Assembly (NCBI GenBank): GCA_015064025.1
Contig: SVSZ01000001.1
Coordinates: forward strand, 1,705 to 65,704
Reading direction: 5' to 3'
DNA: 64,000 nucleotides
DNA from: Oscillospiraceae bacterium
Lineage (GTDB): Bacteria; Bacillota; Clostridia; Oscillospirales; CAG-272
Shown: positions 5,406 through 54,717 of the stretch, piece after piece
How the letters are laid out: each line of letters starts with the position of its first letter
How positions within the stretch are numbered: position 1 is the first letter of the stretch
Notes under the pieces: model-generated
What the model saw: the letters and a program-made list of their open reading frames with translations, nothing else
The model's database searches: none
Told to the model about the DNA's origin: nothing
Made by a program: the position numbers and the translations under genes

Positions 5406-5477
5406 AAAAATCCATAACAAAAAGCGTTCACGCCTCGGTTCTTACCTTGGCGCGAACGCTTTTTCTGTGGATTTTTT
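5405..5477. terminator. Bidirectional terminator between convergent genes
   Basis: Long imperfect inverted repeat aaaaaatccataacaaaaagcgttcacgcc / ggcgcgaacgctttttctgtggatttttt, with A/T runs on both sides. Confidence 0.7.
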
Positions 5478-5484
5478 GGGTAGC

Positions 5485-8400
5485 TCAAATGACAAGTCTC
5501 AATACAGGCACCACCCCGGGTTTGTCGGAAGTGATAACCTCTCGAGAAGTAGCCCCGTTGTTGCCGACCACAGTCACCATTTGAGAAGAATCCTCCATAG
5601 GTGAACGAAGCCACCAAACTCCGTTACCGGTTTTACCGGTGAGCTTACTTGTATACGCTCCCTGTGACTGCGCGTAATCGGTGGACTTTTTCATTCTTGC
5701 AGCGTCAGTCCCCGACGCATCAGAGGAAAAGCCATAGTCACCATAGATCACATCCTGATGGGAAAGCAGGAATATCTTATCCTCCGTAGCTTCGCAAACG
5801 TAGGAATTTGAAATGCTGCCTGTACTTGTTATGCTGTTGTCTACCAAAGTTGTAAGTATGACCTTTTGCTGGAGACTGTCAAAGGCTGTATTCATGAAGG
5901 TCTCGTTGAGCCATTTCCTTATCGTACTGTAGGCATAATTGGAAGCATACGTATTGCTCGGCACTCCGTTTGAGGAATTATAAGATTCGTTCCCCACGGA
6001 AGAAGATACATTCTGGTACGCCTGCGCATCTATGATCATATCACAAATGACCAGTGCTGTGCCATTGGCGGTATCCTCACTAAGGATCGTCCAAGCAATC
6101 GGCTCATATTTGAACCAGTAGACCGTACTTTTAGAATAACCGTTTTCCGTCTGGGTCAGATTACGGGCGGAGGTGAAATACACACCTCGGTAGCGCTCTC
6201 CTCCCTCTGACACGTCAATATACCACATAAAGTTACTGACACTGCCGTTCAGATAATAGCCGTACGACGTCCATGCTCGCGAATTCGAGCTTGATGGAAG
6301 TGTACCTGCTTTGGTTGTAAGGGACCTGATCAGATCCCTATCGGTCACCTTACTTTGCGGATAGGTTCCGAAGTAGACGGTATTGCCGTCACGCTTCAAT
6401 CCGCAAACCGTGCAAATCCCCTCCACATAGTCGTGCTCATGTACGTCATTCGCAACCGACAGAGATGTGCCGCATACATCGCACGTTCCGTCCGAATCCA
6501 AATCGGCACATTCGCTGATTTTATCGCCACAATAATCGCAGATATGATTCTTATCATTGTCGGCACAATCACAAAGCTTGATCCGCAACGCAGGCACAAC
6601 GCCGATAGCGGTTAAGTAAACATTGCCTGTTTTGTTGACATAGCCGTTGGTTGCAACGTTGCGTACGTTCGTCCCGTTTGTATTATAAGGAGAACGGAGC
6701 CACCATTGACCGTAACCGTTTACACACATTGTTCCCTGTGCCTGTGCGTAATCGGTAGCTTTTCTGGACAAATTGTAAGCGATGTCTGCAGCTTCCAAGG
6801 CAGAGATCAGGAAGATCCGATCCTCGGTGTTTTCGCATGCGTGGGAATTCGCGCTGTATCCCGTGCTTGCCACACTGTTATCCACCGTCGTCACGAGAAT
6901 GAGCGATGCTTGCAGCTCGTTAAAGGCGGTCTCCATAAAGGTCTCGTTGAGCCACGTTCTTATCGTGCTGTACGCGTAATTGTTGGGATCCACCGTTTTT
7001 CCGCCCACCGTTCTCGTACCGCTGTCGGTGAGATAATACTCTTGCGAATCTATGATCATGTCGCACAGGATCATTGCAGTACCTTCGAAGGTGTCCTCGG
7101 AAACGATCTTCCAGGAGATCGGCTCATACTTAAACCAATACACCGTGCTTGTAAAATAACCGTTCTCATACTGATACGTGGTGGATTCCGAAGAGGCAGC
7201 CACCGTATACCACGGACGGTAAGACGAGAAATATACTCCTCGATACTTCTCTCCGCCCTCTTCAACGTCAATATACCACATAAAATTGCTGACGTTGCTG
7301 TTGATATAATAGCCGTAAGACGTCCACGCCTGCGAATTACTCTCTGTCGGAAGCGTCCCTGCTTTGGAATTGAGTGTACTCTTCAAGGCATCATCCGTTA
7401 CCTCACTCTGCGGATAGGAGCCAAAAGTGATCTTGTTACCGTTACGGTCGTACGGACGCTTGACACTGCAAAGCGTACAATAACCGTTTTCGTAAGTATG
7501 CCGCGTGAATTCTTCGCACTCTTCACAAATGTGATCCTTATTTGCATCAACACACTCTGTGATCACTGTGCCGCACACATCACAAGCATGATCGTGATCA
7601 GCGTCGGTACAATTACAAAGTCTGATCTGCAATGCAGGCACCACTCCAAGGCCTGCATTAAGCGAAGCGCTGGAAACCGTACCGTTGGGTTCTATGTTGC
7701 GCACGAAGCCGGCTTCACTGTTACCGGGTGAGCGGAGGAACCACCATACGTTTCCGTCGCTTGTATTCACATGTACGCCCTGTGCCTTTGCATAATCGGT
7801 AGCCGCTTTCCCCTGTGCGACAGCGCTGCCATTTGCTTCCTTGTAAGACAGCAGGAATATCTTATCGTGCGTATCCTCACATGCATAGGAATTTGTGGCA
7901 GTTCCGGTGCTTGCCGCACTGTTATCTACCGTCGTTGTGAGAATGTGCGATGCTTGCGCCTCATCAAAGGCGGTTCCTATAAAGCTTTCGTTAAGCCATG
8001 CTCTTACCGCGCTGTGCGCATAGTTGTTGGGATACACCGTTTCTCCGTTCAAGAGTCTGGTACCGCTGTTGGTGATATAGTACACCTGGGAATCCATGAC
8101 CGCGTCACACACGATCATCGCGGTACCGCCCGCAGTATCCTCGGAAAGGATAGTCCAGGCAATCGGTTCATACTTGAACCAATACACCGTACGTGTGGAA
8201 TAACCGTTATCATCCTGATACGTGTAAGCCGTCGACGAGGACTGCGACGGATTATAAGGACGGTAGTAGGTAAAATATACGCCCCTATATTTTTCGCCGC
8301 CGTCTTCTACGTCAATATACCACATGGTATGACTCACGTTACCGCCGATATAGTAGTTGTAAGACGTCCATTTTTGCGGAGTGTAAACCGTCGGAAGCTT

Positions 8401-10899
8401 CCCTGCTCTGGAGTTCAGCGTACTCTTCAGTGCCTCGTTCGTTACCTCGCTTTGAGGATAGGAGCCAAAGTATACGGTCCCACCGTCACGTGTAAATAAC
8501 GGCGGTTCTTCCTTTCCGCAAACTGTGCAACAGCCATCCTCATAAGCATGCGACGTGGTGGCATCGCACTCGTCACAATCATGATCTCTATCTGCATCTG
8601 TGCAGGCTGTGAGATGTTTTTTGCAGTAATCACAGAGGTGATCGCCGTCTCCCGTCGCATCGGAATGCGAACCAACGTCTCCCCCGCACTCGTCACAGTC
8701 GTGATCCCTGTTTGCGTCCGTGCAAGCAGTGAGCGTTTCTCTGCAGTAATCGCAGAGGTGGTCACCGTCGCCTGCGCTATCGGCATGAACGCCAATGGTG
8801 GCTTCGCACTCGTCACACTCATGATCCTTGCCTACGTCAACGCAATCACTTGCGTTTTCTCCGCAGTATTCGCAAAGATGATCTCCGTCGCCCTCTGCAT
8901 CCGAATGCGCACCGACAGGCTCTCCGCATTCATCGCAAACGTGATCCGTGCCCGGATCTGTACAAGACGTGAGCGTTGCTCTGCAGTAATCACAAAGGTG
9001 GTCACCGTCGCCTGTGCTATCGTCATGATCACCAACGGTTCCTTCGCACTCGTCACAAACATGATCCTTGCCTATGTCAACGCAATCACTTGCGTTTTCT
9101 CCGCAGTATTCGCAAAGATGATCTCCGTCGCCCACTGCATCCGAATGCGAACCGACGTTCGCATTGCAATCGTCACAGTGGTGGTCCGTGTCTTCGTCTT
9201 CACAACCCGTAAGGGTTTCTCCGCAGTGATCGCATACGTGATCACCGTCGCCCGCTGTATCGGTGTGACTTCCAAAGCTCTCACCGCACTCGTCACAGGA
9301 GTGGTCCGTGTCTGCGTCTGTGCAAGCTGTGAGCGGTTCTCTGCAGTAATCGCAGAGGTGGTCTCCGTCGCCTGCGCTATCTTCATGCACACCCACGGGC
9401 TCTTCGCACTCATCACACTCATGATCCTTGCCTACGTCAACGCAATCACTTGCGTTTTCTCCGCAGTATTCGCAAAGATGATCTCCGTCATTTGCACGGT
9501 CTGAATGTATTCCGACGTTTTCACCGCACTCATCGCAGTCGTGATCCGTGTTTGCGTCTGTGCAAACGGTAAGGGTTTTTCTGCAGTAATCGCAGAGGTG
9601 GTCACCGTCGCCCACCGCATCCGTATGATCTCCCATCTCAGCGCCGCAATCGTCGCAGTCGTGGTCCTCGTCTTCGTCTTCACAAACAGTGAGGGTTTCT
9701 CCGCAGTGATCGCATACGTGGTCACCGTCACCCGCAGCATCGGTGTGACTTCCAAAGCTCACACCGCACTCGTCGCAGGAGTGGTCCCTGTTTGCGTCCG
9801 CACAAGCAGTGAGCGTTTCTCTGCAGTAATCGCAAAGGTGGTCGCCGTCGCCCACAGTATCGGCATGAACGCCAACGTTTCCTTCGCACTCATCACACGT
9901 GTGATCTTGATTCACATCCGTACAAGCAGTTGCACTTTCATTGCAATATTCGCAAAGATGATCTCCGTCATTTGCAAGGTCTGCATGTATTCCGACGTTT
10001 GCACCGCACTCGTCGCAGTCGTGATCCCTGTCTGTGTCTGCGCAAACAGTGAGTGTTTCTCCGCAGTGATCACAAACGTGGTCACCGTCGCCCGCAGCAT
10101 CGGTATGCCTTCCGACCAACACACCGCACTCATCGCAACCATGGTTTCGATCCGCATCAACACATCTTGTCAAGGGCTCTCTGCAATAATCGCAGACGTG
10201 GTCACCGTCCCCCACAGTATCTGCATGAACACCAACGTTCGCACCGCATTCATCACAGTCATGATCTGTATTCCCGTCAATACAACCGTTCACGTTTTCT
10301 CCGCAATATTCGCAAAGATGATCCCCGTCGCCCGTTGCATCCTCATGCACGCCGACGCTCGCACCGCACTCATCGCAGCCATGGTTTCGATCCGCATCAA
10401 CACAGCTTGTCAAGGGCTCTCTGCAATAATCACAGTCGTGATCGCCGTCATTCGCAATATCCGTATGATCTCCTACGTTCCCATTGCAAGCATCACAGGC
10501 ATGATCGTTATTCGCATCGGTATGAATACAGGCATATTCACACTTCAAGCAAACACCGTTCACCCACTCGTGCGGCTCCTCCGCTACGGCAATGGTGTCA
10601 CAGCAAGTATACGTCTTCTTATGTACGGTTTCATTTTTTGTCCAAACAGCCTCATTTGCATGGTTGTTGGCGTTAAAATCCCCGTAAGCCTCTCCGCATG
10701 CGGTGCAAACGGCATGGTCGTTACAGGTTGCGGTGCCTCCCGCATGAGAGCAGGATGCTCCGCTGTCTCCACTGTCATCGCCTTGCGAATTCTGCTCGCC
10801 GCGATCTCCCGTATGATCGTGTGAAGGTTCCTGTGTGCAGGACGAAAAGACACCGACCAACATCAAAAGAGCCAACACAAGTGCTAAAAACCGTTTCAA
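5485..10899 (-). CDS. Giant lipoprotein: Asp/His/Cys-rich 40-aa tandem repeats plus three DUF6273-like modules
   Basis: The ORF is open to 10917. The likely start is TTG 10899, 8 nt after GGAGG, giving MKRFLALVLALLMLVGVFSSC (lipobox). There are 16 copies of the unit GDGDHxC[DE][YH]Cx5CxDx3DHxCD[ED]Cx5HxD. Three modules follow, each with FG[ST]YPQS, YRGVYF, VYWFKYEPI, WLRSP and GVVP[AV]L. Confidence 0.9.
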   Translation of the reverse strand: MKRFLALVLALLMLVGVFSSCTQEPSHDHTGDRGEQNSQGDDSGDSGASCSHAGGTATCNDHAVCTACGEAYGDFNANNHANEAVWTKNETVHKKTYTCCDTIAVAEEPHEWVNGVCLKCEYACIHTDANNDHACDACNGNVGDHTDIANDGDHDCDYCREPLTSCVDADRNHGCDECGASVGVHEDATGDGDHLCEYCGENVNGCIDGNTDHDCDECGANVGVHADTVGDGDHVCDYCREPLTRCVDADRNHGCDECGVLVGRHTDAAGDGDHVCDHCGETLTVCADTDRDHDCDECGANVGIHADLANDGDHLCEYCNESATACTDVNQDHTCDECEGNVGVHADTVGDGDHLCDYCRETLTACADANRDHSCDECGVSFGSHTDAAGDGDHVCDHCGETLTVCEDEDEDHDCDDCGAEMGDHTDAVGDGDHLCDYCRKTLTVCTDANTDHDCDECGENVGIHSDRANDGDHLCEYCGENASDCVDVGKDHECDECEEPVGVHEDSAGDGDHLCDYCREPLTACTDADTDHSCDECGESFGSHTDTAGDGDHVCDHCGETLTGCEDEDTDHHCDDCNANVGSHSDAVGDGDHLCEYCGENASDCVDIGKDHVCDECEGTVGDHDDSTGDGDHLCDYCRATLTSCTDPGTDHVCDECGEPVGAHSDAEGDGDHLCEYCGENASDCVDVGKDHECDECEATIGVHADSAGDGDHLCDYCRETLTACTDANRDHDCDECGGDVGSHSDATGDGDHLCDYCKKHLTACTDADRDHDCDECDATTSHAYEDGCCTVCGKEEPPLFTRDGGTVYFGSYPQSEVTNEALKSTLNSRAGKLPTVYTPQKWTSYNYYIGGNVSHTMWYIDVEDGGEKYRGVYFTYYRPYNPSQSSSTAYTYQDDNGYSTRTVYWFKYEPIAWTILSEDTAGGTAMIVCDAVMDSQVYYITNSGTRLLNGETVYPNNYAHSAVRAWLNESFIGTAFDEAQASHILTTTVDNSAASTGTATNSYACEDTHDKIFLLSYKEANGSAVAQGKAATDYAKAQGVHVNTSDGNVWWFLRSPGNSEAGFVRNIEPNGTVSSASLNAGLGVVPALQIRLCNCTDADHDHACDVCGTVITECVDANKDHICEECEEFTRHTYENGYCTLCSVKRPYDRNGNKITFGSYPQSEVTDDALKSTLNSKAGTLPTESNSQAWTSYGYYINSNVSNFMWYIDVEEGGEKYRGVYFSSYRPWYTVAASSESTTYQYENGYFTSTVYWFKYEPISWKIVSEDTFEGTAMILCDMIIDSQEYYLTDSGTRTVGGKTVDPNNYAYSTIRTWLNETFMETAFNELQASLILVTTVDNSVASTGYSANSHACENTEDRIFLISALEAADIAYNLSRKATDYAQAQGTMCVNGYGQWWLRSPYNTNGTNVRNVATNGYVNKTGNVYLTAIGVVPALRIKLCDCADNDKNHICDYCGDKISECADLDSDGTCDVCGTSLSVANDVHEHDYVEGICTVCGLKRDGNTVYFGTYPQSKVTDRDLIRSLTTKAGTLPSSSNSRAWTSYGYYLNGSVSNFMWYIDVSEGGERYRGVYFTSARNLTQTENGYSKSTVYWFKYEPIAWTILSEDTANGTALVICDMIIDAQAYQNVSSSVGNESYNSSNGVPSNTYASNYAYSTIRKWLNETFMNTAFDSLQQKVILTTLVDNSITSTGSISNSYVCEATEDKIFLLSHQDVIYGDYGFSSDASGTDAARMKKSTDYAQSQGAYTSKLTGKTGNGVWWLRSPMEDSSQMVTVVGNNGATSREVITSDKPGVVPVLRLVI
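8520..10540 (-). repeat. In-frame 120-bp tandem repeat array (16 units) inside the giant lipoprotein gene
   Basis: The 60-nt blocks starting at 8821, 9061 and 9421 are identical except for one C/T. Their spacing is a multiple of 120 bp. Confidence 0.9.
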
Positions 10900-10983
10900 A
10901 TCAAATTCCTCCATCACACTAAAAATTCAAATGAGATATCCGAGGGAATGATATCAAATACGCGGGGATTCCGCGTATTCGTT

Positions 10984-13984: not shown

Positions 13985-15349
13985 TTAAACTCTGCGCAAA
14001 AATGCAAGTCCGCCCTCGGGAAGTGTGACCGTATCGATCATCGCACCCGTTTCGCGGTTTTCCCACGGATGTGTCAGCGTTACAGTCTGCGTCTCGCTTG
14101 TAAGGTTCGAGATGCAAAGATACTGCTCATTACCCGTGAAAAGGCTCATGTACACGTGCTTCGGAAGCTGACCGTGTATCAGCGTGCTATCGGTCACGTT
14201 CATATGGCAAACGTTGTTCTCCTCGACCATGGGCTTATAGAGAGCAAGATATTTGAACCAATTGGCACGGTACTCCTCATTATCGGGGATCCCCGACCAG
14301 TCGCTGTAGGAATAGGGACCCTCCGGATGCTCCTCATCGTACTTCGCCATTTCCTGATAGGTTTCATACATTCCCGTTGTCTTGTACTTGACGCCCGGTA
14401 CGGAAATGATTTTTCCCGCCTGATAGGGACGGCCGTCGGGACGAAGCGGGAACTGCAAAAACGGGATCGTCTGTGCAAACATTCTCTTGACTGCCGTCTC
14501 CCCTGTCCAACGAAGATCCGGACACGGAATGAGATAGGGATCAAATTCGACGGTGCCGAGAAGATCGTCAAGATCGGACACACCCTCTCCTACCCAGAGA
14601 TAATCATAAAGCTTTTCGTCCGACGCGGGGCGGCAGACGTTGGAATAATGCATCTTCATAATGCCGTGATTTTCTTTGACAAAGGAATACATACGGGCAT
14701 AGAAGTCCTCTTCAAACGGATCGTAGCCGATATCAGACTGCACGCAGCTCTTTCTGCCTTCAGCTCTCACTCTGGCATGCGCCTTTGCAAACTCCTCACA
14801 GCCCGTGTCGTTATAAATACCGTCAAACTCATATTCATCAAAGACACGCTTCATCTTGTCAAAGAAATAGGTTGCCCACGTCTCGGACTCTGCGGAGCAA
14901 TTGGCGTACTCAAAGTGTACGCTGATAAGATATGATCTGTAGCGCATGAAATCCTCGCGGAAATCGGGGTCGCGGCGATCAAAATAGAAGGAGGAAAGGT
15001 ACGGGAGCACCTTGATCCCGAAATCGTGGCAAAGACTGATGAATTTTTTCATGCCCTCGGGATCGTGCGAGGAATACTTGTCCGCGCCGTAAAGACGGAT
15101 ATGATCGTTCCACTCCTCGTGCACCTGAATGAGTCCCACGCCCTGCTCGGCAAAGCTTTTGATCAGGTTATAGTCGTATTCGGTGGGCTCAATGGAAAAC
15201 CTTGCGGGATAAGGACCGAGATTGTAGGTCACCTGCCCGGGAAGATAATCCCTGATACGGATATGCTTCGCGCAAGCCTTGACGTGCTCCTGTGCATAAC
15301 GGATATTGTCAAGTCTCTTTTTTTGTTCTTCAAGACTCCACAGCTTCAT
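13985..15349 (-). CDS. Hypothetical protein, glycoside-hydrolase-like TIM-barrel candidate
   Basis: 454 aa with a GGAGG RBS. Strand-acid patterns (LIQVHEEWND, FGIKVLPYLS, FDGIYNDTG, YLWVGEG) resemble GH-like barrels. I cannot name a family. Confidence 0.45.
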   Translation of the reverse strand: MKLWSLEEQKKRLDNIRYAQEHVKACAKHIRIRDYLPGQVTYNLGPYPARFSIEPTEYDYNLIKSFAEQGVGLIQVHEEWNDHIRLYGADKYSSHDPEGMKKFISLCHDFGIKVLPYLSSFYFDRRDPDFREDFMRYRSYLISVHFEYANCSAESETWATYFFDKMKRVFDEYEFDGIYNDTGCEEFAKAHARVRAEGRKSCVQSDIGYDPFEEDFYARMYSFVKENHGIMKMHYSNVCRPASDEKLYDYLWVGEGVSDLDDLLGTVEFDPYLIPCPDLRWTGETAVKRMFAQTIPFLQFPLRPDGRPYQAGKIISVPGVKYKTTGMYETYQEMAKYDEEHPEGPYSYSDWSGIPDNEEYRANWFKYLALYKPMVEENNVCHMNVTDSTLIHGQLPKHVYMSLFTGNEQYLCISNLTSETQTVTLTHPWENRETGAMIDTVTLPEGGLAFLRRV

Positions 15350-15455: not shown

Positions 15456-17411
15456 TCAATGCAAGATAAGGATCACGGGGTAAAGGTGCTCGCAGACAAG
15501 ATCCATTGTGTATGCGCCGAACTCCCCTTCTTCAAATTTGACAGACTCAAGCGTGCCGTCGGGACAGAGACGCTCGACACTTGAAAGCTTTTTCTTTGAT
15601 ATGAGCACGGGCTGCTCGATGGGATCGCAGGAAAGATTGAAGACAGCACAGAACATGCCTCCGTCCTCCATATCCGCCGCGCGGAAATAGACCTCTTCAT
15701 CCCCGGGATAATACAGCGGCAATTCTCCCGCCACGTCAAGGATGCGGATCAATTGCTGTTTTCTCGAAAAGTTGAGAAAGGAAAACGCCTCTTGAATATT
15801 GAACGCCACCTTCGGTGAGCCCGCAAAAGTGAAGATCTTACCGCCAAGCGCATTGTCGAATACAAGAGAACCCGGGAACAGGCGTTCAAAGTTGACCTTG
15901 TCCACCGAATTCGTCACCGTTGAAAGCTCGCGCACAGAATCAAAGAGAGGGACAAGCTCGCGCACTCTTTGCTGTACTGTGCATTTATTTCCGTTCCCCC
16001 CAAGAAGCTCGTGCGTGGGAGTTTTCCCCGTCCACGCGCGAACACGCACGCCGATATGCTTCTCAAATCCGCGTTCGGCAAGATGCGCGGCGGCATCCGA
16101 TGCCAGCATCATGTTGCCGCGAAGCATTTCAAGGATCTCCTCATCCGAAAAAGCGGTATCACGCGTTCCCTCAAGACAAGCAACGCCGCCCGACTGCGTC
16201 GAAAAATACATGGGAAGCCCCAATCTTTCAAGAAGACATTTGCTCCAGTGATCGACGCCGTCGGAAGACTCCACCCAAGCGTCTCCCAGGGGAAACCTCG
16301 GCGTTGCACTGACAGGAATACGGAAGCCACGGTGCCTGAGTGTCGGAGCAAGCTCGGAAAGTGTCTGATAAAAGCCACGGTGCTTTCCGAGAATACGGCG
16401 GTACGCCTTGCCGCTTTCGGGCTCGTAAGCCGCCAAGCGTGTGATCCAGTGCTTAGCCCCCGTCGCACCTTCGATGATCGATCCCGTAAAATGTGTATGC
16501 AAAGAGCGCGCACCCGTGCTGTAGCGATTTTGCGGGCAGGTGTCGGTTTCGGCAAGCACCACGTCTGCCTTGCCCTCAAGCTTTGCGATGGAAGCTGCAC
16601 ATTTCAAAAAGCTGTGGCTGAAATACTTGGCACCCATAGGGGTATAGTTGGCGTTATTGATACGAAGCACCACGGGATTTCCTTCTCCCGCCATGATCTT
16701 GGCAATCTCCACACCAAATTCCACGCTGCTGCCGACCGTGCAATAAGAGCCGGGAATGGTGGGATCCACGCTGTCGATCGCCGCGCGCATAACACGTGCG
16801 CACTCAAGAAGAGAGTCCCTTTGCGTCTGCACAAACAGCTCCGACACCGCTCTTGCGCTCTCGGTTCGCTCGCTTACTGCGGCAAGAAGCGCTTCTCTTT
16901 CCATACGTACACCGAGGCTTCTTTCAAGCCTGTCCAGATGCAAGGGGCAGGCACATCCTCCACCCGTACGGTAAAGGAGTCTGAAATCATCATCCAGCAT
17001 AATATGCGACGGTGCATACGACGCCAATTTCTCAAACGTACGGCGGATATATTCACGAAAGCCCTCGTCCGCAGGACAGACAGTAAAGGTCTTTTCTCCG
17101 TCGACAAGCTTTACGTACTGCTGATACGGAAACAATTCCCCAAGCATCCAGCCATGCCCTATACTCGCCTGAACCAGAATTCCGTTCGGGATTCCCATTT
17201 GCGCAAGCCGCTCACGAAAAAGAGCATACTTCTCGCCAAGGATTCTTGCCTTATCTACGGGCGGATCTCCCTCGGGGACCAGCGTCATGGAAAACAGTGC
17301 ACAGGTCGCTACACCGCTCTCGTACTGCTCTTTGATATCCTCGCAGATTTCCTCCAAATGCTCCACGTCCAAAGGCATGACCGTATACAGCTGTAATTTT
17401 TGCTTTTCCAT
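15456..17411 (-). CDS. Hypothetical protein, 651 aa, unknown family
   Basis: I placed the start at ATG 17411 (MEKQKLQLYTVMPLDVEHL...) after a G-rich RBS. It has coherent composition and the same orientation as the 454-aa gene, which lies 106 nt downstream. No signal peptide. Confidence 0.6.
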   Translation of the reverse strand: MEKQKLQLYTVMPLDVEHLEEICEDIKEQYESGVATCALFSMTLVPEGDPPVDKARILGEKYALFRERLAQMGIPNGILVQASIGHGWMLGELFPYQQYVKLVDGEKTFTVCPADEGFREYIRRTFEKLASYAPSHIMLDDDFRLLYRTGGGCACPLHLDRLERSLGVRMEREALLAAVSERTESARAVSELFVQTQRDSLLECARVMRAAIDSVDPTIPGSYCTVGSSVEFGVEIAKIMAGEGNPVVLRINNANYTPMGAKYFSHSFLKCAASIAKLEGKADVVLAETDTCPQNRYSTGARSLHTHFTGSIIEGATGAKHWITRLAAYEPESGKAYRRILGKHRGFYQTLSELAPTLRHRGFRIPVSATPRFPLGDAWVESSDGVDHWSKCLLERLGLPMYFSTQSGGVACLEGTRDTAFSDEEILEMLRGNMMLASDAAAHLAERGFEKHIGVRVRAWTGKTPTHELLGGNGNKCTVQQRVRELVPLFDSVRELSTVTNSVDKVNFERLFPGSLVFDNALGGKIFTFAGSPKVAFNIQEAFSFLNFSRKQQLIRILDVAGELPLYYPGDEEVYFRAADMEDGGMFCAVFNLSCDPIEQPVLISKKKLSSVERLCPDGTLESVKFEEGEFGAYTMDLVCEHLYPVILILH

Positions 17412-17518
17412 GCACAAACCCCCGTGAATAGAATACACTTTGGTTACATTATAGCGTACCGTCAGTAAAAAATCAAGGGATTTTCTTCGAATTTTTTTCG
17501 TCAATCCGGCGCCCCTTC

Positions 17519-17547
17519 TTGACAAACAGAGCCTTTTGCGGTATAAT
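17519..17547 (+). promoter_or_regulatory. rnpB promoter
   Basis: Perfect TTGACA (17519-17524), 17 nt, TATAAT (17542-17547). Confidence 0.85.
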
Positions 17548-18933: not shown

Positions 18934-18950
18934 ACTGCACCCTCCGTTTC

Positions 18951-21900
18951 TCAATTAAACGTTGCATTGACATTTCCGGCAATATAAGGATCTATGGTTG
19001 TATTATTCTCACCATAAACCTCATTCATTTTAAGATCAACCGCTTCACACGCTTCCTTTACTGTCTTTCCTGCTTCTAATTCCGCGAAGAAATATTCACA
19101 CCAATCATTCATTTGATTTGAAAGCACACTCAACTCAAACCCTATAACTACTTTCGCCCCCTTAGCATGCGTTGCGTTTACGAGATTATTGGAATCCTCC
19201 CTGCCCTCACCGGTCGAACACGCACCGTAAATAATCAAATCTATATTGGACAGGGCATCGTTCGGCAAACTTTGAAGCATAGATATATTTATTGGTTCAT
19301 TGGATGTTTCAATCCCGGTTTGAAAACCGTGTGTTCTGACAACAACAATTTCCGATTTTGTCATGTGATTGAGCAAGAAATTTTCATTCATACAAGTTTG
19401 TTTTGCATAAATATCCGTATATCCCATAGCTTCAAGATTTCCTATAACGGATGAATAAAACTTTGTACGATTATAAGCTTCGGGAATTGATATGATAGAA
19501 ACCTCATGATCAATTTCAATCAACCATTCATCAAGCGTATTACTATCCTGTGGATCCGCTAATTGCACCAAATCCACTCCACTTGAGGTGCTATTATACG
19601 GTAACGAAAGCGCCATTCCGCTTGCTTCCGAGCATTTTGGAACAAAGCGATAATTTCCACCATCTGTAATTTGCAGCTTCCACCTTCCGGCGTCACTAAC
19701 AGTGGACATTTGTACAATGGAAGCTCCGCTTGCAGTAGATCCGTTGGCAACGGAAACATATTTTGATGAATACAAAGATTTAATTGTATAATATCCGAGA
19801 CCAACATGATTAAAAACCCACTTTGCTTGAGGGCTCGTATGATATGCCCACTGTTGAATCCGCGCCGAATCCGCAGTTGACGGTCCCTCCACATCCATGT
19901 ATCTTTGAGAAGAAATATTTTGTACATGATACGTTCCGCTCGGTATGACTTGACCTACCATAATAGAAAATTTGTATTGATAATCGTTGTCGCCACTATC
20001 AGTAACAATAATATTGGTATACCCGTGCCCAACGCCTGTGATGCGACCGCTTGCATCAACTGTTGCAACATCGGTATTCTCGCTTTTCCAATGATGGGAG
20101 CTATTTGTTTTCCATGTCGCGTTGCTAGGTTGTACGGAAAGAGTAGGTGTATGAGAAGCACCTACAGCCATCCACGTCAACGTATCCGAGGCGGCTCTTG
20201 AAGTAGATTGCACCTCGATGATATTGTTTGCAAGTTTAGTCAGATACCATACGGTTTGGTTATAGCTTGATGAACTTGAGCTTTGTGCAGACATCATTCC
20301 CAATTCAAGTGCACTATCATTTTGAAGGTATGTAAGCACTTTGCTGTTGGCTTTGTTTTTTAAAATTGCGCCTCCGCCGGTTGCATAAGAAATCTGCCAA
20401 TGAAAGCCCGTATTCGCCTTATCATATCTTTTCAACTTCGAATCCTTATAAACGGCATATGTTGTCTTCCAATATGGGCGTATTACATAGCCAAGGGTAT
20501 CACGATATTCTATAATCCAACAACCACTTTCGTTCACTGACGATTGAAAGGTTGTTTCTGGTTCCGTTAACGAATCTCTTTTTTGAAGTTTCGAAATGTA
20601 AGTCCCCAAAACCTTGTTGCGTATTGTGTAATGTCCTCCAATATCACTTGTGACAATTTCAAGATATACGTTGCTATTCCCGGTGGCTTCCGTTGAATAA
20701 ATCGCACCTTCGTCTATCAAGTCCTCCGTTTGGCTCAATGCAAAACCATTTCTGGGGTTATTTTCTGCATTTGAAGTCGCGCCTGTATTGTACTTGGCCC
20801 ACCCGCGAACAATGTCGGTAACATCCATACTAAATGTATCACCGTATGTTACAACAACATTCGATGACACTCCGTCTGTGGTTGAGGCACCAGAAAACAA
20901 AGTGGAATTATTCACTGCAATTTGGGATTCATAATTTTGAGAAGATTGTACCATGGGATGTATATTCATTTGGGAGCGAATCTGTGCAACAGGAGTAAAA
21001 GAGACAGTCGCTCTTCCAATTTGATAGGGATTTAGGCTTTTAAACTGTCCTTGTGTCCCATAGAAATCGTAAAACTTATAAATAACCTTTCCTTGCCCCT
21101 CGGATAGGTTATGTTGTGACGAGTTAGATAATGCATAATTGTACAAAGAGCTGTTATTATAAAGTCCAATATCAATAATTGCATCGTATTCCGTATAAAC
21201 AGGTTCGCTTCCTTCATAAGTAACGTAAGAATTTTTCTCATTCACTATCACTGTCGGATCCACAAAAACAGGATATACAGTGTCCGCTGCTTTTAAAAAT
21301 GCCGCAGGAACGGTAATTAACATGGTATAACCGCCAGTGGCATTTTCCGTTATATCCAAATCACCGTATGCTGTTTTTCCGTTACTATCTTCGATGAGTA
21401 TTTTTTCAAAGTCGAACAGAAAATTTCCCTCCTCATCCAAAAGCCGCCATTCACCTTGTTCGGTTTTTATTGGAGCCAATCCAGAGGTTGTCAAAAGAAA
21501 TCTGAAGGAATATTTTCCGATATTTGACATTAAAACAATATCTTCTTTTATTCCTGAAAGTTGCGTTTGATATCTCAAAGCCGTGTTTGCACCAAATACT
21601 CCATTATAAACTATACTCTTTCCATCCGCACCAAGCTTCACAGGAGAAACAATGAGCGAGTTTTCCGGTTTCATGGACATAGAGTGATTTTCAAACGATA
21701 TCATAATACCGTTGGAAGCATTATTTCCAAAATATGCACTAAAACTATTTTCGGTCATTGCGTACGAATATCCTGCAAGTCCTGTTTCGGAAATACTCGT
21801 GTTCTTATCTCTGATTTCTCCATCAGATGTTATGTATTTTACAGGCTTATCGTATACGTATGAGGTTTTTGAACCATTTTGATTTTGATAAATTACAGTT

Positions 21901-21986
21901 TGTAAACTCTTCTCTTGCGCAAATAAACGATTAACGTGTCCCTTTTCAATTGTCTGTTCCAAGCTTACAGTTTCAGGTCTTGACAC
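18951..21986 (-). CDS. DNRLRE / ricin lectin / Big_2 / ricin lectin / CHAT-like (caspase-fold) protein; body of an interrupted gene
   Basis: YPVFVDPT; MDVTDIVRGWAKYNTG (DNRLRE-type); VATVDASGRITGVGHGYTNIIVT (Big_2); IQQWAY, GRWKL, DEWLI (ricin QxW-type). The C-terminus has IVVVRTHG ... LIIYGACSTGEG ... AKGAKVVIGF. Confidence 0.7.
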   Translation of the reverse strand: MSRPETVSLEQTIEKGHVNRLFAQEKSLQTVIYQNQNGSKTSYVYDKPVKYITSDGEIRDKNTSISETGLAGYSYAMTENSFSAYFGNNASNGIMISFENHSMSMKPENSLIVSPVKLGADGKSIVYNGVFGANTALRYQTQLSGIKEDIVLMSNIGKYSFRFLLTTSGLAPIKTEQGEWRLLDEEGNFLFDFEKILIEDSNGKTAYGDLDITENATGGYTMLITVPAAFLKAADTVYPVFVDPTVIVNEKNSYVTYEGSEPVYTEYDAIIDIGLYNNSSLYNYALSNSSQHNLSEGQGKVIYKFYDFYGTQGQFKSLNPYQIGRATVSFTPVAQIRSQMNIHPMVQSSQNYESQIAVNNSTLFSGASTTDGVSSNVVVTYGDTFSMDVTDIVRGWAKYNTGATSNAENNPRNGFALSQTEDLIDEGAIYSTEATGNSNVYLEIVTSDIGGHYTIRNKVLGTYISKLQKRDSLTEPETTFQSSVNESGCWIIEYRDTLGYVIRPYWKTTYAVYKDSKLKRYDKANTGFHWQISYATGGGAILKNKANSKVLTYLQNDSALELGMMSAQSSSSSSYNQTVWYLTKLANNIIEVQSTSRAASDTLTWMAVGASHTPTLSVQPSNATWKTNSSHHWKSENTDVATVDASGRITGVGHGYTNIIVTDSGDNDYQYKFSIMVGQVIPSGTYHVQNISSQRYMDVEGPSTADSARIQQWAYHTSPQAKWVFNHVGLGYYTIKSLYSSKYVSVANGSTASGASIVQMSTVSDAGRWKLQITDGGNYRFVPKCSEASGMALSLPYNSTSSGVDLVQLADPQDSNTLDEWLIEIDHEVSIISIPEAYNRTKFYSSVIGNLEAMGYTDIYAKQTCMNENFLLNHMTKSEIVVVRTHGFQTGIETSNEPINISMLQSLPNDALSNIDLIIYGACSTGEGREDSNNLVNATHAKGAKVVIGFELSVLSNQMNDWCEYFFAELEAGKTVKEACEAVDLKMNEVYGENNTTIDPYIAGNVNATFN

Positions 21987-21989
21987 ATC

Positions 21990-22238
21990 TTACGGTTCAA
22001 GAGACTGCAATTGTGAAAGAGGGAGTTCTCCTTCTCCAAGAGTAAAAAGTAGATTTTCATCAACCAAAGAAACTGAATTTGTAGCAGTATTTGCATCTAT
22101 CACTACTGTTGTCGAATCATTTAAAGTCTGGTCGGCAGCTACAACTGAAAGCGATGCAGAAAGGATCAATAACGTAACGCAAAGAAATGCAGATACAATT
22201 CTAAGCCACTTCATTTTCAATGTATACGATTTTTTCAT
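21990..22238 (-). CDS. Signal-peptide fragment in frame with the downstream 1,011-codon ORF
   Basis: AAGGAG RBS. MKKSYTLKMKWLRIVSAFLCVTLLILSASLSVVAADQ... It ends at TAA 21992-21990, and the same frame continues. Confidence 0.7.
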   Translation of the reverse strand: MKKSYTLKMKWLRIVSAFLCVTLLILSASLSVVAADQTLNDSTTVVIDANTATNSVSLVDENLLFTLGEGELPLSQLQSLEP

Positions 22239-50445: not shown

Positions 50446-53400
50446 TTACGCAAAGGTGATGTTCGCAGAAGCGTAACCGGCGATCACTTCATCCGAAGAA
50501 TTGACCACCCATATCTGGATCAATACCTCGGTCCCTGCTGTGAGCTCAACAGTCAAGGGATTCCTACGTTTAGCAACACCGCTTGCAAGCTCAAGACCGG
50601 TTGCCTTATCCGTAACAACGATCTTAATATTCGCACTGCTCGTAATCGGTGTCGTACGATCAAACGTCAAGGTTCCGTCGGCTGTTGCCGTATACTTAAA
50701 GTAATAGCCGTCCGTTGTAATGGGAGCACTCTGGGCACCTATTGCCACCTTTGTAGCGGTTGCACTCAGGGAAGCAATTTCTTCGGGGTTCGCCGCAGAG
50801 CCGAGTTTAATGTCGGCACTGAGAGAGATCGTACCGCTCACACCGCGGTTCACGACGAAGATCACAGGACCTGTACCCTCTTCTACGGGAGGAATCGGCT
50901 TTGTCGCCGTTGCATTCGGGTACAAGGATGTCTTGTTGTCGGGAGCTGTTGCAAGATAGTAAACAACCTCTGCATTGGTCTCTCCGTCAACCAACGTAAG
51001 TCCGCTTACGTCAACCGTAATTTCCTTACCTGTAAGCCCCAGAGAATAATACTTACCGGGATCTACTGTCCAGGAGGTTACCGTAGCATCAAGCACGATC
51101 GGATTGTATACCGTACCGGCTTCGGGAGTAAAGCCTGCAGTGAAGGTAATGTCAGCCGCTGCACGGTCACCCGTGAGCTCGTCTGCAATCACAATCACTT
51201 GAATCTTAACGGTCTCACTTGCTGCGACCGTCACGTTGAGAGCCCCTTCGGTCACGTCGCTGAGCTTGAAGGTGCCTGTAGCTGTCGTTACAATGATATC
51301 GGCAACAACACCGTCGGTGATGGTAGCAATATCAAAGGACGCGGTTCCGGGAACGTCGCTGTAAGGATTCTTCCAGGTGTAGTAGTAACCGTCCGCATCG
51401 TTCGCTTCAAGACTAAGGTCGATAGAAGCAACCTCATTCTTTACGCTCGGGATGCTTACAGGCTTATTCACAGAACCTACGGGATAATCGAAGGTATAAG
51501 TATATTCGCTTCCGTCTCCCACGATCTTAAAGCTCACCGACTCTTCGTCCGCCAAGAGGAAGGATATTCTGCCATCTGTATCGTTATAAGTAGTTCCGTT
51601 GTAGATTACAGAGAAGCCCGTGGGACCTGTGAAGGTCGCCTCGTTCTTATAAGCATTCGTGCTTTCAACGTAAAGTGCACTGTAATCTATCTGGAAGGAC
51701 ACGGTACCACTGACCGCCAGCACGTCGGAAAGCTTGCTGAGAGAGGCAGTAAAGGCAGTGGATAGCACAAGATCCGCCTCTGCGGGATAGGTATCGTCGG
51801 ATCCGGGATTGACAACAACGTGTACCGTGTATTCTGCGTTCTTTATTGCCTTGAAGCTAAGGACACCGTCCACTCCGTTTGCGCTCATCTTCTTATAGGG
51901 GGTAGTTCCCATCATTACGATAAGGTCGGTTTCTACATCTGCCGCCTCGCAAGTGAGCATAAATTCTACCGTACCCGTTGCACTGGGAACGAAGTCGAAG
52001 TAATATCCATCTTTGATATAGGTTCCGAGGTGAAGCTCCGTCTCACCAAAGGCAAGCGTATCATGTCTTGCGGCAGAGCCCAGAGGGTCGTTCACGTTGA
52101 TATTGTAAACACCGCATCCCTCGATCGCAAAGGTGATTGCATCGGTTTGATCGGTGCTAAGCTCGATCGTTGCAATTCCCTTTGCCTCAGCATCGGGATC
52201 GTCGTTGGGAATCAACGTGTCGGTGATCTCACCGTCGTTGTAGAGAAGCTTGAAGCCCGCAGGACCTGTAACGGTGATGACCTCACCCGGGAAAGCACCT
52301 TGATAATAAAGGGTCCCGTTTACAACAGCGGTGGTGTTGTTCTTGACGATGGTGATGGGATTGTTCTTGTTTCCGAGATCCGCATCTACGGTCACGTTAC
52401 CTGTAAATCCGCCGAGGATCGTCAACTGAGGATTCGTAAATGCATCGGAGCCTGCCGTGTTTGCGATCAGCTTTGCGGAAAGTCCGCGAATGTTCGCAAC
52501 AGCAAAGTTTCCGGAGTAAAGGGTTACCGTCTTTTCCCCGACCTTCAAGGTCATATAAGCGATCGCCGCAAAATCACGGTCAAGATTTTCGGGCTTGATA
52601 TCAATGATCGAAGCGGTCATATAGGTCTTGGAGGTATCCTCTTCGTCGATCTCGAAGCCTGCCGCTCCCTCGAAATCCTTTACGTATTTGACGTCAAGGT
52701 AATTCACGTCCTTGTCAAGGGTATCAAGGTTTTCCTTATTGAAGGAGCCTGCGGTCAATACGTAATCATAAGGAGCGATGAGCGTTCCGCGGTCAACGAT
52801 CGTGGCGCCAAGGGTCTCGGTGATCTCCTCAAGACGAGCCGTGTTGACTTCGGTTGCGAAACGCAAGCCGTTGGGAGTTTCGAAACGAACGGTGGTCTCA
52901 CCCAAGGTGTTGATAACGTCGTTGTACGCATCCAGCTCCGCTTCCTTCGTAAGATAGGAAAGGTGTTCGCCTTCCCCGTCCACGTAATTTGCGGGATCTG
53001 CCACTTCGACCTTGACGTTGTCGATACAAATGCCGCCCTTCAATTCACTTTCAAGGCTATTGGTTCTTTGAATCTTCGCAACGTTCCAATAGGAGCCCGC
53101 ATCCTTACCGATGGTAAGGTTGCCATGTCCGACCGTTCTCTCTGCCACGTAGGTGTCGTTAAGATAGATCTGATAGACACCCGTTTCAAGATTCAGAACA
53201 AGCTTGAGATTGTTCCACTGACCGATCTTCATGTAGGTCTCGGTAGCACCGATGGCAACCTGACCGTCGTTGTCGGACATCTTACCCGTTGCGATGTCGA
53301 CCTTGAAGATCTGCATCCAAGACTTTCTCTCGTTCTTATCCTCTGCAGTGCTTGCCGCATTGTAGCTGTAGAACGACTCAAACTGGGACTCTACAATTCC

Positions 53401-54717
53401 CTTGGAGCCATGCTCGATGAAGTAGTCCGCCGAAAGAACAACGGTCTTACCGGGATTCTCCGCATCGTTATATGCGAAGGTGGGGTGTACAAACTTGGAA
53501 GCCTTAGCAATGTTCTGTCCGCCGTTCGCGATCTCGGTGACCGCATCGGGAACGATGTAATATCTCTTCCCGTCGGTCAAAAGATCGCCCCAGCTGTCAT
53601 CGGTCACGTAATAGAAGCCGTTGTTTCTATCAAGCTTCAGATCAAAGTTCTCCACACCGTGCTCCTTGGTATCCAAAGACACGGTATTGCTTTTACCGTC
53701 CCATACGATGCCCGAAGCATAGGTCTTCTTGCAATCCGCACTGATGAGTGTGTAAGTATCGGTAGGAAGTGCCGCCGCCATAGGGATACGGCAAACGATA
53801 CTGCCATCCATACGCTCGTAGGTTGCAAGAGAAGGTGTGGAAACACCGCCTGCCTGGTAGCCTACGCTGTAGATGTAATCCTCGAAATCCTCATAGGGCT
53901 TGGATTCCCTGGGCTCAGCCGTCGGAGTGTCGCCTGCGAAGAACCTGATGTTGTCGATCTGAACAGAGCCGGCACCGGGATATTTATTGGGCTTTGTAAC
54001 AATGAACTTCCCTTCGGGGATGACAAGGTTGGTGCTAACCTTGGTCCCCATGTTGCTGACATTTTCAAAAACTTTTACACCGTTGATGTAAAGGTCGTAT
54101 CTGCATGCCTTCATGTCGAGCACCATGGAAACGGTGTTCCAGACACCGAGCTTCATGCTGTTCTCTGCCAGAGCAGTTCCAAAGGAACCGCCGCCCTCCG
54201 TCACCAAGAATGCCTTACCGTCCTGCAGCTGCACGCAGAAGAGAGAGATCCACGAAGCGTCTCCGGCTGCGGAACGCGCGTTCGTAAGCTGTGTCTGGAG
54301 TCTTCCCGTAGAGCCGGGACCAAAGAAGAGATCTACCTCGTATACGATCTTTTCATACGTTTCATGGCTGATCTCGGGATTGTTGATCGTTTGGCTGACG
54401 TCCTTGTTCAATTCGTCCGGAGCCTTATTGTTCGTCGTATCGTTGACCTTGTAATCAAAGCTCCACGCATTGGAACCAAAGGTATCGGAAATGACGGAAT
54501 TCGCAAGCGCCAGCTTCATCCCGGAGGTAGGCGCCTTGCCAACCGTTTCCGCTTCAAAATCCAGAGCGAAGATCGGAGTCGGCGTGGCGGGCGGCGTTTC
54601 CTGTTCTTCAAAGAGGACGCCGTTAAAATCCGCAAAAGTAGGGATGCTGATCAGAGGTAGAATCGTTACAAGTGCCAATGCAAACGCAAGGATCCTGCTG
54701 TGCTTTCTGATTTTCAT
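50446..54717 (-). CDS. 1,423-aa secreted surface protein (LamG-like lectin domains plus PPC-like beta-sandwich repeats)
   Basis: Signal peptide MKIRKHSRILAFALALVTILPLISIPTFA. Two lectin-type cores: GVWNTVSMVLDM....YDLYINGV and IGQWNNLKLVLNLETGVYQIYLND. A GLRFATEV...GTLIAPYDYV module. Several DGYY[FY].[FYW] units. Paralogous to 61033-63390. Confidence 0.85.
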   Translation of the reverse strand: MKIRKHSRILAFALALVTILPLISIPTFADFNGVLFEEQETPPATPTPIFALDFEAETVGKAPTSGMKLALANSVISDTFGSNAWSFDYKVNDTTNNKAPDELNKDVSQTINNPEISHETYEKIVYEVDLFFGPGSTGRLQTQLTNARSAAGDASWISLFCVQLQDGKAFLVTEGGGSFGTALAENSMKLGVWNTVSMVLDMKACRYDLYINGVKVFENVSNMGTKVSTNLVIPEGKFIVTKPNKYPGAGSVQIDNIRFFAGDTPTAEPRESKPYEDFEDYIYSVGYQAGGVSTPSLATYERMDGSIVCRIPMAAALPTDTYTLISADCKKTYASGIVWDGKSNTVSLDTKEHGVENFDLKLDRNNGFYYVTDDSWGDLLTDGKRYYIVPDAVTEIANGGQNIAKASKFVHPTFAYNDAENPGKTVVLSADYFIEHGSKGIVESQFESFYSYNAASTAEDKNERKSWMQIFKVDIATGKMSDNDGQVAIGATETYMKIGQWNNLKLVLNLETGVYQIYLNDTYVAERTVGHGNLTIGKDAGSYWNVAKIQRTNSLESELKGGICIDNVKVEVADPANYVDGEGEHLSYLTKEAELDAYNDVINTLGETTVRFETPNGLRFATEVNTARLEEITETLGATIVDRGTLIAPYDYVLTAGSFNKENLDTLDKDVNYLDVKYVKDFEGAAGFEIDEEDTSKTYMTASIIDIKPENLDRDFAAIAYMTLKVGEKTVTLYSGNFAVANIRGLSAKLIANTAGSDAFTNPQLTILGGFTGNVTVDADLGNKNNPITIVKNNTTAVVNGTLYYQGAFPGEVITVTGPAGFKLLYNDGEITDTLIPNDDPDAEAKGIATIELSTDQTDAITFAIEGCGVYNINVNDPLGSAARHDTLAFGETELHLGTYIKDGYYFDFVPSATGTVEFMLTCEAADVETDLIVMMGTTPYKKMSANGVDGVLSFKAIKNAEYTVHVVVNPGSDDTYPAEADLVLSTAFTASLSKLSDVLAVSGTVSFQIDYSALYVESTNAYKNEATFTGPTGFSVIYNGTTYNDTDGRISFLLADEESVSFKIVGDGSEYTYTFDYPVGSVNKPVSIPSVKNEVASIDLSLEANDADGYYYTWKNPYSDVPGTASFDIATITDGVVADIIVTTATGTFKLSDVTEGALNVTVAASETVKIQVIVIADELTGDRAAADITFTAGFTPEAGTVYNPIVLDATVTSWTVDPGKYYSLGLTGKEITVDVSGLTLVDGETNAEVVYYLATAPDNKTSLYPNATATKPIPPVEEGTGPVIFVVNRGVSGTISLSADIKLGSAANPEEIASLSATATKVAIGAQSAPITTDGYYFKYTATADGTLTFDRTTPITSSANIKIVVTDKATGLELASGVAKRRNPLTVELTAGTEVLIQIWVVNSSDEVIAGYASANITFA

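Follow-up and report, generated by a model that had tools for sequence, protein, structure and literature searches.

The reverse strand of a 64,000-nucleotide stretch of contig SVSZ01000001.1 from an Oscillospiraceae bacterium (this whole stretch is called the window in the following) encodes, between positions 5485 and 10,899, a giant protein in which a long array of short repeats rich in Cys, His and Asp precedes three DUF6273 modules. With moderate confidence, we propose that this protein is a surface lipoprotein composed of an anchor and a metal-stapled stalk (Zn, possibly also Ca) bearing DUF6273 heads of lectin-like type. Adhesin-like surface lipoproteins with repetitive stalks are a known kind; a stalk made of undescribed, predicted metal-nucleated beads of 20 amino acids (aa) would be new. 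From the N- to the C-terminus, the protein consists of a lipid anchor, a 28-aa acidic tether, a Cys-rich module of about 75 aa, 33 beads, a head, two beads, a head, two beads and a final head. The corresponding features are given below, residue numbers throughout referring to the 1810-aa open reading frame, in which the lipobox Cys is residue 27.

5485..10917, (−) strand: longest open reading frame, 1810 aa from GTG, stop codon included.
5485..10899, (−) strand: probable real coding sequence, 1804 aa, TTG start.
10837..10899, (−) strand: lipoprotein signal peptide and lipobox, aa 7–27 (...LVGVFSS-C27), PROSITE-style pattern match only.
10753..10836, (−) strand: acidic Gly/Ser/Asp-rich tether after the lipidated Cys, aa 28–55, pI 4.08, net charge −6 over 28 aa.
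10525..10752, (−) strand: second Cys-rich module of about 75 aa, one copy, aa 56–131, identified from the sequence.
8551..10524, (−) strand: array of 33 Cys/His/Asp half-repeats, aa 132–789, a leading half-unit plus sixteen 40-aa units, proposed metal-stapled stalk.
7618..8550, (−) strand: head 1, aa 790–1100, cap knuckle H-x-Y-x2-G-x-C-x2-C plus DUF6273 module of about 295 aa (Pfam).
7501..7617, (−) strand: linker 1, aa 1101–1139, two half-repeat knuckles (DHACDVC, DHICEEC; copy of repeat family D2 at 7511–7557).
6574..7500, (−) strand: head 2, aa 1140–1448, cap knuckle plus DUF6273 module (Pfam, AlphaFold2, Foldseek).
6442..6573, (−) strand: linker 2, aa 1449–1492, knuckle NHICDYC plus a degenerate DGTCDVC without His (copy of repeat family D2 at 6524–6570).
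5488..6441, (−) strand: head 3, aa 1493–1810, cap knuckle plus DUF6273 module, end of the protein (Pfam).

The Repeat Array and Its Family

An initial inspection of the letters alone (the sequence-only reading) had described sixteen tandem units of 40 aa, and this count holds: The motif DGDHxC[DE][YH]C occurs 16 times between aa 157 and 757 at a spacing of exactly 40 aa, with the full GDGDH in 13 of the 16 copies. An extra half-unit at the start of the array (aa 132–155) brings the total to 33 half-repeats, and four more knuckles between the DUF6273 modules, one of them without His, raise the number of beads in the protein to about 37. The 40-aa unit has twelve invariant columns (D2, G3, D4, H5, C7, C10, C17, D19, H24, C26, D27 and C29). 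Per 40 aa, we counted 5.0 Cys, 3.3 His, 8.1 Asp and 3.1 Glu, which agrees with the five Cys and three His estimated at first and makes the accompanying figure of about nine Asp slightly high. Altogether, the array holds 82 Cys, 55 His and 133 Asp in 658 aa, and its formal net charge amounts to −164 over 664 aa (pI 4.05). As judged from its sequence, the reading frame of the array is held by selection.

A search of the whole protein against Pfam-A returned DUF6273 only and against NCBIfam nothing, and the array alone gave no match above threshold in either database. Below threshold, the array shows partial similarities in Pfam to zf-H2C2_2 (21.7 bits, cutoff 40) and PknG_rubred (18.7 bits, cutoff 28.5) and to the LITAF-type HxCxxC. 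TSP_3 (PF02412) matched neither the array nor a single unit at E ≤ 10, nor the whole protein at E ≤ 1, and Ldl_recept_a gave no match at E ≤ 10. Among PDB sequences, nothing was found for the protein, and a three-unit profile reached a best E of 0.09, to C2H2 fingers; a Foldseek comparison of a three-unit model with the PDB yielded no significant neighbor (best E = 2.6, rubredoxins at E ≥ 3.6, Rpb12 among the top matches). The arrays of relatives match zf-BED, C2H2, TRASH, HMBD and desulfoferrodoxin-N models weakly, and the less acidic ones accumulate matches of 10–15 residues to the CxxC knuckle of many unrelated zinc-finger models. In our reading, these weak zinc-finger matches are a generic knuckle signal and not family membership. 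Several specific homologies were rejected: C2H2 and BED fingers, as only 10–15 model residues were matched, with no full domain and no helix in the model; rubredoxin, as each bead has one CxxC and the Foldseek values were those given above; thrombospondin type-3 repeats, as TSP_3 did not match; and Pht proteins, as the protein contains no HxxHxH motif. A search of the literature for the motif and for cysteine-rich stalks in Clostridia likewise retrieved no description. By sequence and fold comparison, the repeat belongs to no named family in Pfam, NCBIfam, the PDB sequences or the PDB structures searched by Foldseek, as the sequence-only reading had supposed for the 40-aa unit.

The survey of the motif across genomes that the same reading had suggested shows how widespread the repeat is. 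A profile of the 16 units retrieved 712 cluster representatives at E ≤ 1e-3 among 1.84 billion proteins (clusters at 50% identity), 408 of them at E ≤ 1e-10 and 144 at E ≤ 1e-30; most of the 712 are very long, with up to 46 matched stretches each. With 712 proteins at E ≤ 1e-3, a chance origin of the similarity is excluded on statistical grounds. In parallel, a degenerate DNA pattern of two repeat cores 57 nucleotides (nt) apart, run on the GTDB representative genomes, identified at least 120 loci. Among the matches listed, nearly all come from gut Clostridia of humans, ruminants, deer and horse, the taxa being Oscillospiraceae, Ruminococcaceae, Acutalibacteraceae, Christensenellaceae and some Lachnospiraceae, and two are cultured strains, Fusicatenibacter faecihominis CLA-AA-H277 and Hominifimenecus microfluidus CLA-AA-H215, each with a single match and thus a candidate array. 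The idea that such an array is unusual for this type of organism was consequently given up: Hundreds of giant surface proteins in gut Clostridia contain one. Two pattern matches fall into bins outside Clostridia, one in a Bifidobacteriaceae bin (L064, 60.8-kb contig) and one in a Muribaculaceae bin (L075, 1356-nt contig); these may represent either rare transfers or contigs assigned to the wrong bin.

Across the family, successive repeats are most often 19 aa apart (1853 of about 2500 spacings), and the basic unit is, on this evidence, a half-repeat of about 19 aa of which the 40-aa unit here is a 19+21 variant. The division of the unit into two halves had been noticed before; their supposed length of 20 aa each is what changes. 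The family logo, built from 1314 repeats of 193 proteins, reads [H52/C47]-x-D92-x-[D57/N34]-x-[D65/N28]-H-x-C-D94-x-C-G58-x-x-[ILV]-[ST] (numbers are percentages), corresponding to the consensus [C/H]-x-D-x-[DN]-x-[DN]-H-x-C-D-x-C-G. Individual arrays comprise between about 4 and 56 beads.

Position of the Array Between Anchor and Heads

We then considered where these arrays are located within their proteins, using only representatives of the 50%-identity clusters and the largest array of each. In N-terminal lipoproteins, the array lies nearer to the anchored end in 35 of 42 cases (p = 1.5e-5), at a median of 54.5 aa from the lipobox Cys versus 540 aa on the distal side; in proteins with a C-terminal transmembrane or sortase anchor, the same holds for 39 of 43 (p = 3e-8; 90 aa versus 933 aa). 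The domains distal to the arrays differ from protein to protein and include Glug, BspA-type leucine-rich repeats (LRR), the Listeria-Bacteroides repeat, carbohydrate-binding modules (CBMs), a dockerin-like tail and a domain resembling metallo-β-lactamases (MBL-like). Moreover, hundreds of lipoproteins carry a single DUF6273 head that is 50–65% identical to the heads here, and in which lipobox and head are separated by an acidic low-complexity linker, by a few copies of the same repeat or by another Cys-rich repeat. The anchor-proximal position, the unrelated distal domains and the swap with plain linkers together argue for a stalk or spacer and point to the array as a portable, anchor-proximal stalk module. 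On the sequence evidence, the repeat is a recurrent module of giant surface proteins with unrelated head domains, almost all of them in gut Clostridia.

Six of the short relatives (P0252, P0253, P0258, P0263, P0270 and P0278) are lipoproteins of 400–490 aa with two to five GDGDH-type 40-aa units followed by one DUF6273 head, which shares 54–62% identity with those described here. Internal duplication within such a short one-head lipoprotein may have given rise to the giant protein.

Predicted Fold and Putative Metal Ligands of the Beads

AlphaFold2 modeling of three units with a 39-sequence alignment (predicted local distance difference test score, pLDDT, 84.5; predicted template modeling score, pTM, 0.48) gave a structure that lacks helices, contains only isolated β-bridges and repeats a knuckle hairpin six times over. 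The β-bridges pair the residue inside H-x-C with the residue three past CxxC. What is predicted with confidence is hence a bead-like knuckle fold. The putative ligand set of each bead, numbered relative to the His, comprises [C/H](−7), H(0), C(+2) and C(+5), interleaved with the acidic positions D(−5), D/N(−3), D/N(−1) and D(+3).

At column −7, which bridges successive repeats, 99% of the repeats have Cys or His (H 52%, C 47%): A Cys or His is present at 1922 of 1927 unique junctions. In the relatives P0093 and P0111, whole arrays have His only at the bridging position and Cys only as the CxxC pair. This free exchange of Cys and His argues for metal ligation rather than a conserved disulfide; the column behaves in the alignments like a metal ligand and would be incompatible with a conserved disulfide partner. 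The beads therefore probably bind metal. The acidic positions are similarly conserved (D−5 92%, D/N−3 91%, D/N−1 93%, D+3 94%) and correspond to positions 1, 3, 5 and 9 of an EF-hand/DxDxDG-type loop, all acidic or amide, with an invariant His at loop position 6 in place of Gly. A second, Ca-type site per bead is possible by resemblance to this motif. The CxxC zinc knuckle and the DxDxD string of Ca type that had been noticed in the letters thus both fit the family logo, and the former also fits the sub-threshold knuckle matches; the likeness of the latter to thrombospondin type-3 repeats does not extend to detectable homology.

From these elements, the following mechanism can be drawn up. Each bead would fold around a tetrahedral transition-metal ion, most likely Zn2+, with S3N coordination in the Cys-type half and S2N2 coordination in the His-type half, both of which are ligand sets typical of structural Zn; the Asp/Asn string may additionally bind Ca2+. 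The metal sites would staple the chain instead of disulfides, which would be unreliable outside the cell for a strict anaerobe, and the array would form a semi-rigid, strongly acidic stalk that carries the heads through and past the Gram-positive wall so that these can bind outside the cell, the ligand probably being a glycan or a surface structure. In a monoderm, the heads of a lipoprotein anchored in the membrane are exposed only if it spans a thick wall, and a long acidic stalk would seem a sensible way across.

A bolder version, which we put forward tentatively and regard as rather unlikely, would make the array a new extracellular fold class, a "bimetallic wire" in which each bead of 19–21 aa is nucleated by one Zn2+ (C/H, H, C, C) and one Ca2+ (D, D/N, D/N, D). 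In such a wire, metal staples would replace the disulfides of thrombospondin-type calcium wires as an adaptation of strict anaerobes; stalk length, stiffness and head display would then depend on luminal Zn and Ca, and the stalks could collapse when the host withholds metals, for instance through calprotectin.

The DUF6273 Heads

The three DUF6273 modules recognized in the sequence-only reading are borne out by Pfam (PF19789), which matches in three stretches with E = 6.9e-66 and 221.8 bits versus a cutoff of 23.5. Directly before every module stands a cap knuckle, H-x-[YW]-x2-G-x-C-x2-C (aa 790–800, 1140–1150 and 1495–1505), which occurs also at aa 116–126 and in many single-module DUF6273 homologs; it may be an integral N-terminal extension of DUF6273 that lies outside the Pfam model. 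In addition to this knuckle, the conserved head unit here comprises about 295 aa, compared with 172 aa in the Pfam model. The AlphaFold2 model of head 2 and its linker (pLDDT 90.9, pTM 0.86) matches solved and predicted DUF6273 domains: Its sole significant Foldseek neighbor in the PDB is 9qa6, an IgA peptidase of T. ramosa (E = 2.1e-7, 250 columns), the N-terminal domain of which is a DUF6273 domain (PMC12402451) whose role in the peptidase is still undefined (PMC12415215). Among viral models, head 2 matches DUF6273/DUF1566 proteins, some of them annotated as tail or tail-fibre proteins.

DUF6273 has been described as a C-type-lectin-like domain and a target of diversity-generating retroelements (DGRs), with the variable region at its C-terminus (PMC10743442, PMC11792537). 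The segment WWLRSP...GVVPAL is the most variable one in the family, and in the protein studied here it shows 15–27% identity among the three heads versus 56–64% for the core. Because the heads diverge most in the segment that phages diversify in DUF6273, they probably have different specificities, a difference that the sequence comparison suggests. Regarding the retroelement itself, no direct or inverted repeat ties any DUF6273 C-terminus to DNA outside the gene in the 64-kb window, in which a reverse transcriptase gene was not specifically searched for; DGR targeting of the heads was rejected, as the window holds no template repeat. Compared with other DUF6273 proteins, the present one is alike in having three clear C-terminal members with the most variable segment at the domain's C-terminal end, the site of DGR variable regions (PMC11792537); it is unlike them in that no template repeat is found in the window and that three copies are strung on a predicted metal-knuckle stalk.

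Alternative Explanations

The ligand density of the array, about four soft or borderline and four hard ligands per 20 aa, would also suit a high-capacity extracellular scavenger, store or detoxifying sponge for Zn or another metal, comparable in role to the streptococcal Pht histidine-triad lipoproteins or to a surface metallothionein, with the heads being secondary. The protein is a lipoprotein, as Pht proteins are, and the weak matches of relatives' arrays to HMBD and TRASH concern heavy-metal models. We nevertheless consider such metal capture unlikely as the main function, since the array is portable, sits next to the anchor on many unrelated heads and takes the place of plain disordered linkers; moreover, the strict period, the hydrophobic and Ser/Thr pattern and the confidently predicted fold point to a structural rather than an exchangeable site, and the adjacent genes (ribF, DD-carboxypeptidase, proC and proA) include no metal transporter, nor does the protein contain HxxHxH. 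Quite unlikely, in our estimation, is that the array itself is adhesive, for example by binding mineral, pectin, mucin or cell-wall polymers as a Ca-bridged polyanion. Its strong negative charge and the conserved D-x-[DN]-x-[DN] with a further Asp at +8 would be in line with this, and many bacterial adhesins do bind through repeats; the units have, however, few variable positions and no hypervariable patch, and they lie at the anchor and not at the tip, with recognized binding domains always distal to them. Metal capture and direct adhesion could still be additional roles of a stalk.

The Asp strings, which resemble Ca-binding loops, and the extracellular location of the protein could alternatively indicate a disulfide-stapled repeat that binds Ca only, as in thrombospondin type-3 or LDL-receptor class A repeats. 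This is improbable in view of the bridging position with its nearly equal shares of Cys and His, which leaves three Cys in Cys-type and two in His-type half-repeats, and of the P0093 and P0111 arrays, in which the CxxC pair is all the Cys there is; neither TSP_3 nor Ldl_recept_a matched, and the hosts are strict gut anaerobes. An anaerobic host would be compatible with a redox wire, in which the knuckles bind Fe in rubredoxin-like or small Fe-S centers and serve as an extracellular electron conduit, and PknG_rubred for this protein, the desulfoferrodoxin N-domain for a relative and the non-significant rubredoxins in Foldseek hint in the same direction. Yet all these matches are sub-threshold or cover 10–15 residues, each site has one CxxC and, as structural Zn sites typically do, one or two His, the neighborhood lacks redox partner genes and the architecture is of adhesin type, so that an electron conduit is very improbable. 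Finally, the source is a metagenome-assembled genome, and Tandem Repeats Finder (TRF) reports higher-order periods of 240–480 nt at about 80% identity within the array, so that the true copy number might differ by a few units. That the repeat is mis-assembled or the region non-coding is nonetheless hardly credible: DNA identity between units is 55–92% with a mean of 67%, a divergence that speaks against a collapsed or inflated assembly of identical repeats, and although the units differ by 8–45% at the DNA level, the 12 ligand and Asp columns are retained throughout and no stop codon interrupts the frame over 5.4 kb; a second source, JGI/IMG, contains an 1809-aa protein from the same 90%-identity cluster, and hundreds of independent assemblies carry such arrays. 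The artefact that the sequence-only reading had allowed for was accordingly rejected.

None of these alternatives explains the anchor-proximal position together with the swap with plain linkers as well as a stalk does. Several points nevertheless weigh against a metal-stapled stalk. The anchors in the position counts were called by regular expressions and not by a trained predictor, 59 of 144 representatives have no anchor that simple patterns could classify and a minority of the family arrays lie far from any recognizable anchor. The bridging ligand could serve the upstream or the downstream site, two registers that are not separated by its counts at the array ends (upstream C/H in 279 of 281 first repeats, downstream C/H in 271 of 281 last repeats) or by co-degeneration, as it is absent at five junctions only. 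The low pTM of the three-unit model is compatible with a rod but equally with flexible beads, thiolate-Zn sites outside the cell are uncommon and prone to oxidation, and the suggested Ca binding is a matter of resemblance to DxDxDG, with His standing where that motif has Gly.

Comparison with Known Systems

One close analogy for the proposed stalk is provided by the thrombospondin type-3 "calcium wire", in which the chain is organized around bound ions. Both consist of extracellular, short, tandem Asp-rich repeats with DxDxD strings, regular Cys and little secondary structure; in the array, however, the Cys are joined by and exchange with His, both being predicted transition-metal ligands, and the hosts are bacterial anaerobes. 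With zinc knuckles and ribbons (the LITAF HxCxxC, the first knuckle of C2H2 and BED fingers, rubredoxin), the beads share the H-x-C-x-x-C-G turn and, in the model, the β-bridge pattern of the knuckle. They match none of these over a full domain and differ in that they have one CxxC, a His two residues before it and a Cys or His seven before that His, and in that they follow head to tail every 19–21 aa, up to 56 per protein, extracellularly and with four conserved acidic residues; rubredoxins and zinc ribbons have two CxxC knuckles per site, the beads one each.

Gram-positive adhesin stalks such as SasG/Aap G5-E, Rib/alpha-like and SHIRT likewise place tandem repeats in variable copy number between anchor and tip, and tip projection is the role presumed to be common to them and the array. 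Those repeats are β-sheet domains of 70–130 aa, and in SasG/Aap Zn mediates dimerization between molecules and not the folding of each repeat; the array, in contrast, is made of 20-aa beads that are predicted to be metal-nucleated. The pneumococcal Pht lipoproteins resemble the present protein as Firmicutes surface lipoproteins with repeated Zn-binding motifs, which in Pht proteins are five to six HxxHxH motifs dispersed in a larger fold and devoted to Zn acquisition; our protein is without HxxHxH and has 37 Cys-containing knuckles.

If the beads are indeed metal-nucleated, they would constitute a bacterial zinc-knuckle repeat that is tandem, extracellular and widespread. Classical zinc knuckles are found inside cells, we know of no described bacterial repeat of this extracellular kind, and the literature searched contained no described example. 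Such a stalk would offer strict anaerobes a route to long, stable surface stalks without disulfides and would tie the surface display of DUF6273, BspA-LRR, Glug and CBM heads to gut metal availability. Independently of the metal, the family of 712 clusters from gut Oscillospiraceae, Christensenellaceae and relatives is large enough for a database model, which would annotate the "empty" thirds of hundreds of giant hypothetical surface proteins, and the heads provide a non-phage, triple-copy setting for DUF6273, a domain without an assigned ligand.

Gene Start, Signal Sequence and Genomic Surroundings

The N-terminus of the coding sequence deserves a comment. A Shine-Dalgarno-like GGAGGA is located at 10912–10907, and a TTG at 10899, codon 7 of the 1810-aa frame, follows 7 nt downstream. 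This TTG is probably the true start because of the GGAGGA spacing and the 1804-aa length in GenBank, where the identical protein is deposited as MBE6588544.1 ("hypothetical protein"). Translation from the TTG begins with M-KR-FLALVLALLMLVGVFSS-C, a canonical M-K-R lipoprotein signal. In a pattern-based assessment, the basic n-region, the hydrophobic h-region and a lipobox Cys within about 35 residues are those of a bacterial lipoprotein processed by Lgt and LspA; the lipobox noted at first sight thus fits the lipoprotein signal pattern, and by this match the protein is predicted to be lipidated.

Between tether and array, the second Cys-rich module follows the pattern C-S-H-A-G-G-T-A-T-C...C-x2-C-G-x2-Y-G...N-H...W-T-K...H-x-K-x-Y-x-C-C...E-x-H-E-W-x2-G-x-C-x2-C-x-Y-x-C. 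It is present in a single copy here and forms long tandem arrays in the relatives P0003, P0004 and P0011; no match to it was found in Pfam or NCBIfam.

Two further features flank the gene, each recognized as a consensus match only:

5421..5436, (−) strand: terminator-like hairpin and T-run, about 50 nt past the stop codon.
10957..10979, strand not assigned: 10-bp palindromic hairpin between the proC stop codon and the gene start.

The latter hairpin may end the upstream proC transcript. The neighboring genes are housekeeping genes (ribF, DD-carboxypeptidase, proC and proA, with mutS further off), by which a mobile or phage context was rejected.

Elsewhere in the window, positions 18000–22000 form a low-GC island (0.39–0.42 versus about 0.51 elsewhere) that may have been horizontally acquired and that contains an open reading frame of 1011 aa with RicinB_lectin_2 and Big_2 domains (18951..21986, (−) strand). 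The 1423-aa product of 50446..54717 on the (−) strand has an N-terminal signal-like hydrophobic segment, no Pfam match at E ≤ 1e-5 and no Cys knuckles, and would appear to be another large uncharacterized exported protein. The adjacent open reading frames 13985..15349 (454 aa) and 15456..17525 (689 aa), both on the (−) strand, gave no Pfam match at E ≤ 1e-5. Two pairs of near-identical direct repeats of 46–47 nt are found at 55393–55543 and 63625–63716, one pair being 104 nt apart and the other tandem; the pair at 55393–55543 contains the internal palindrome GCTTTTTGC.CAGCAAAAAG.

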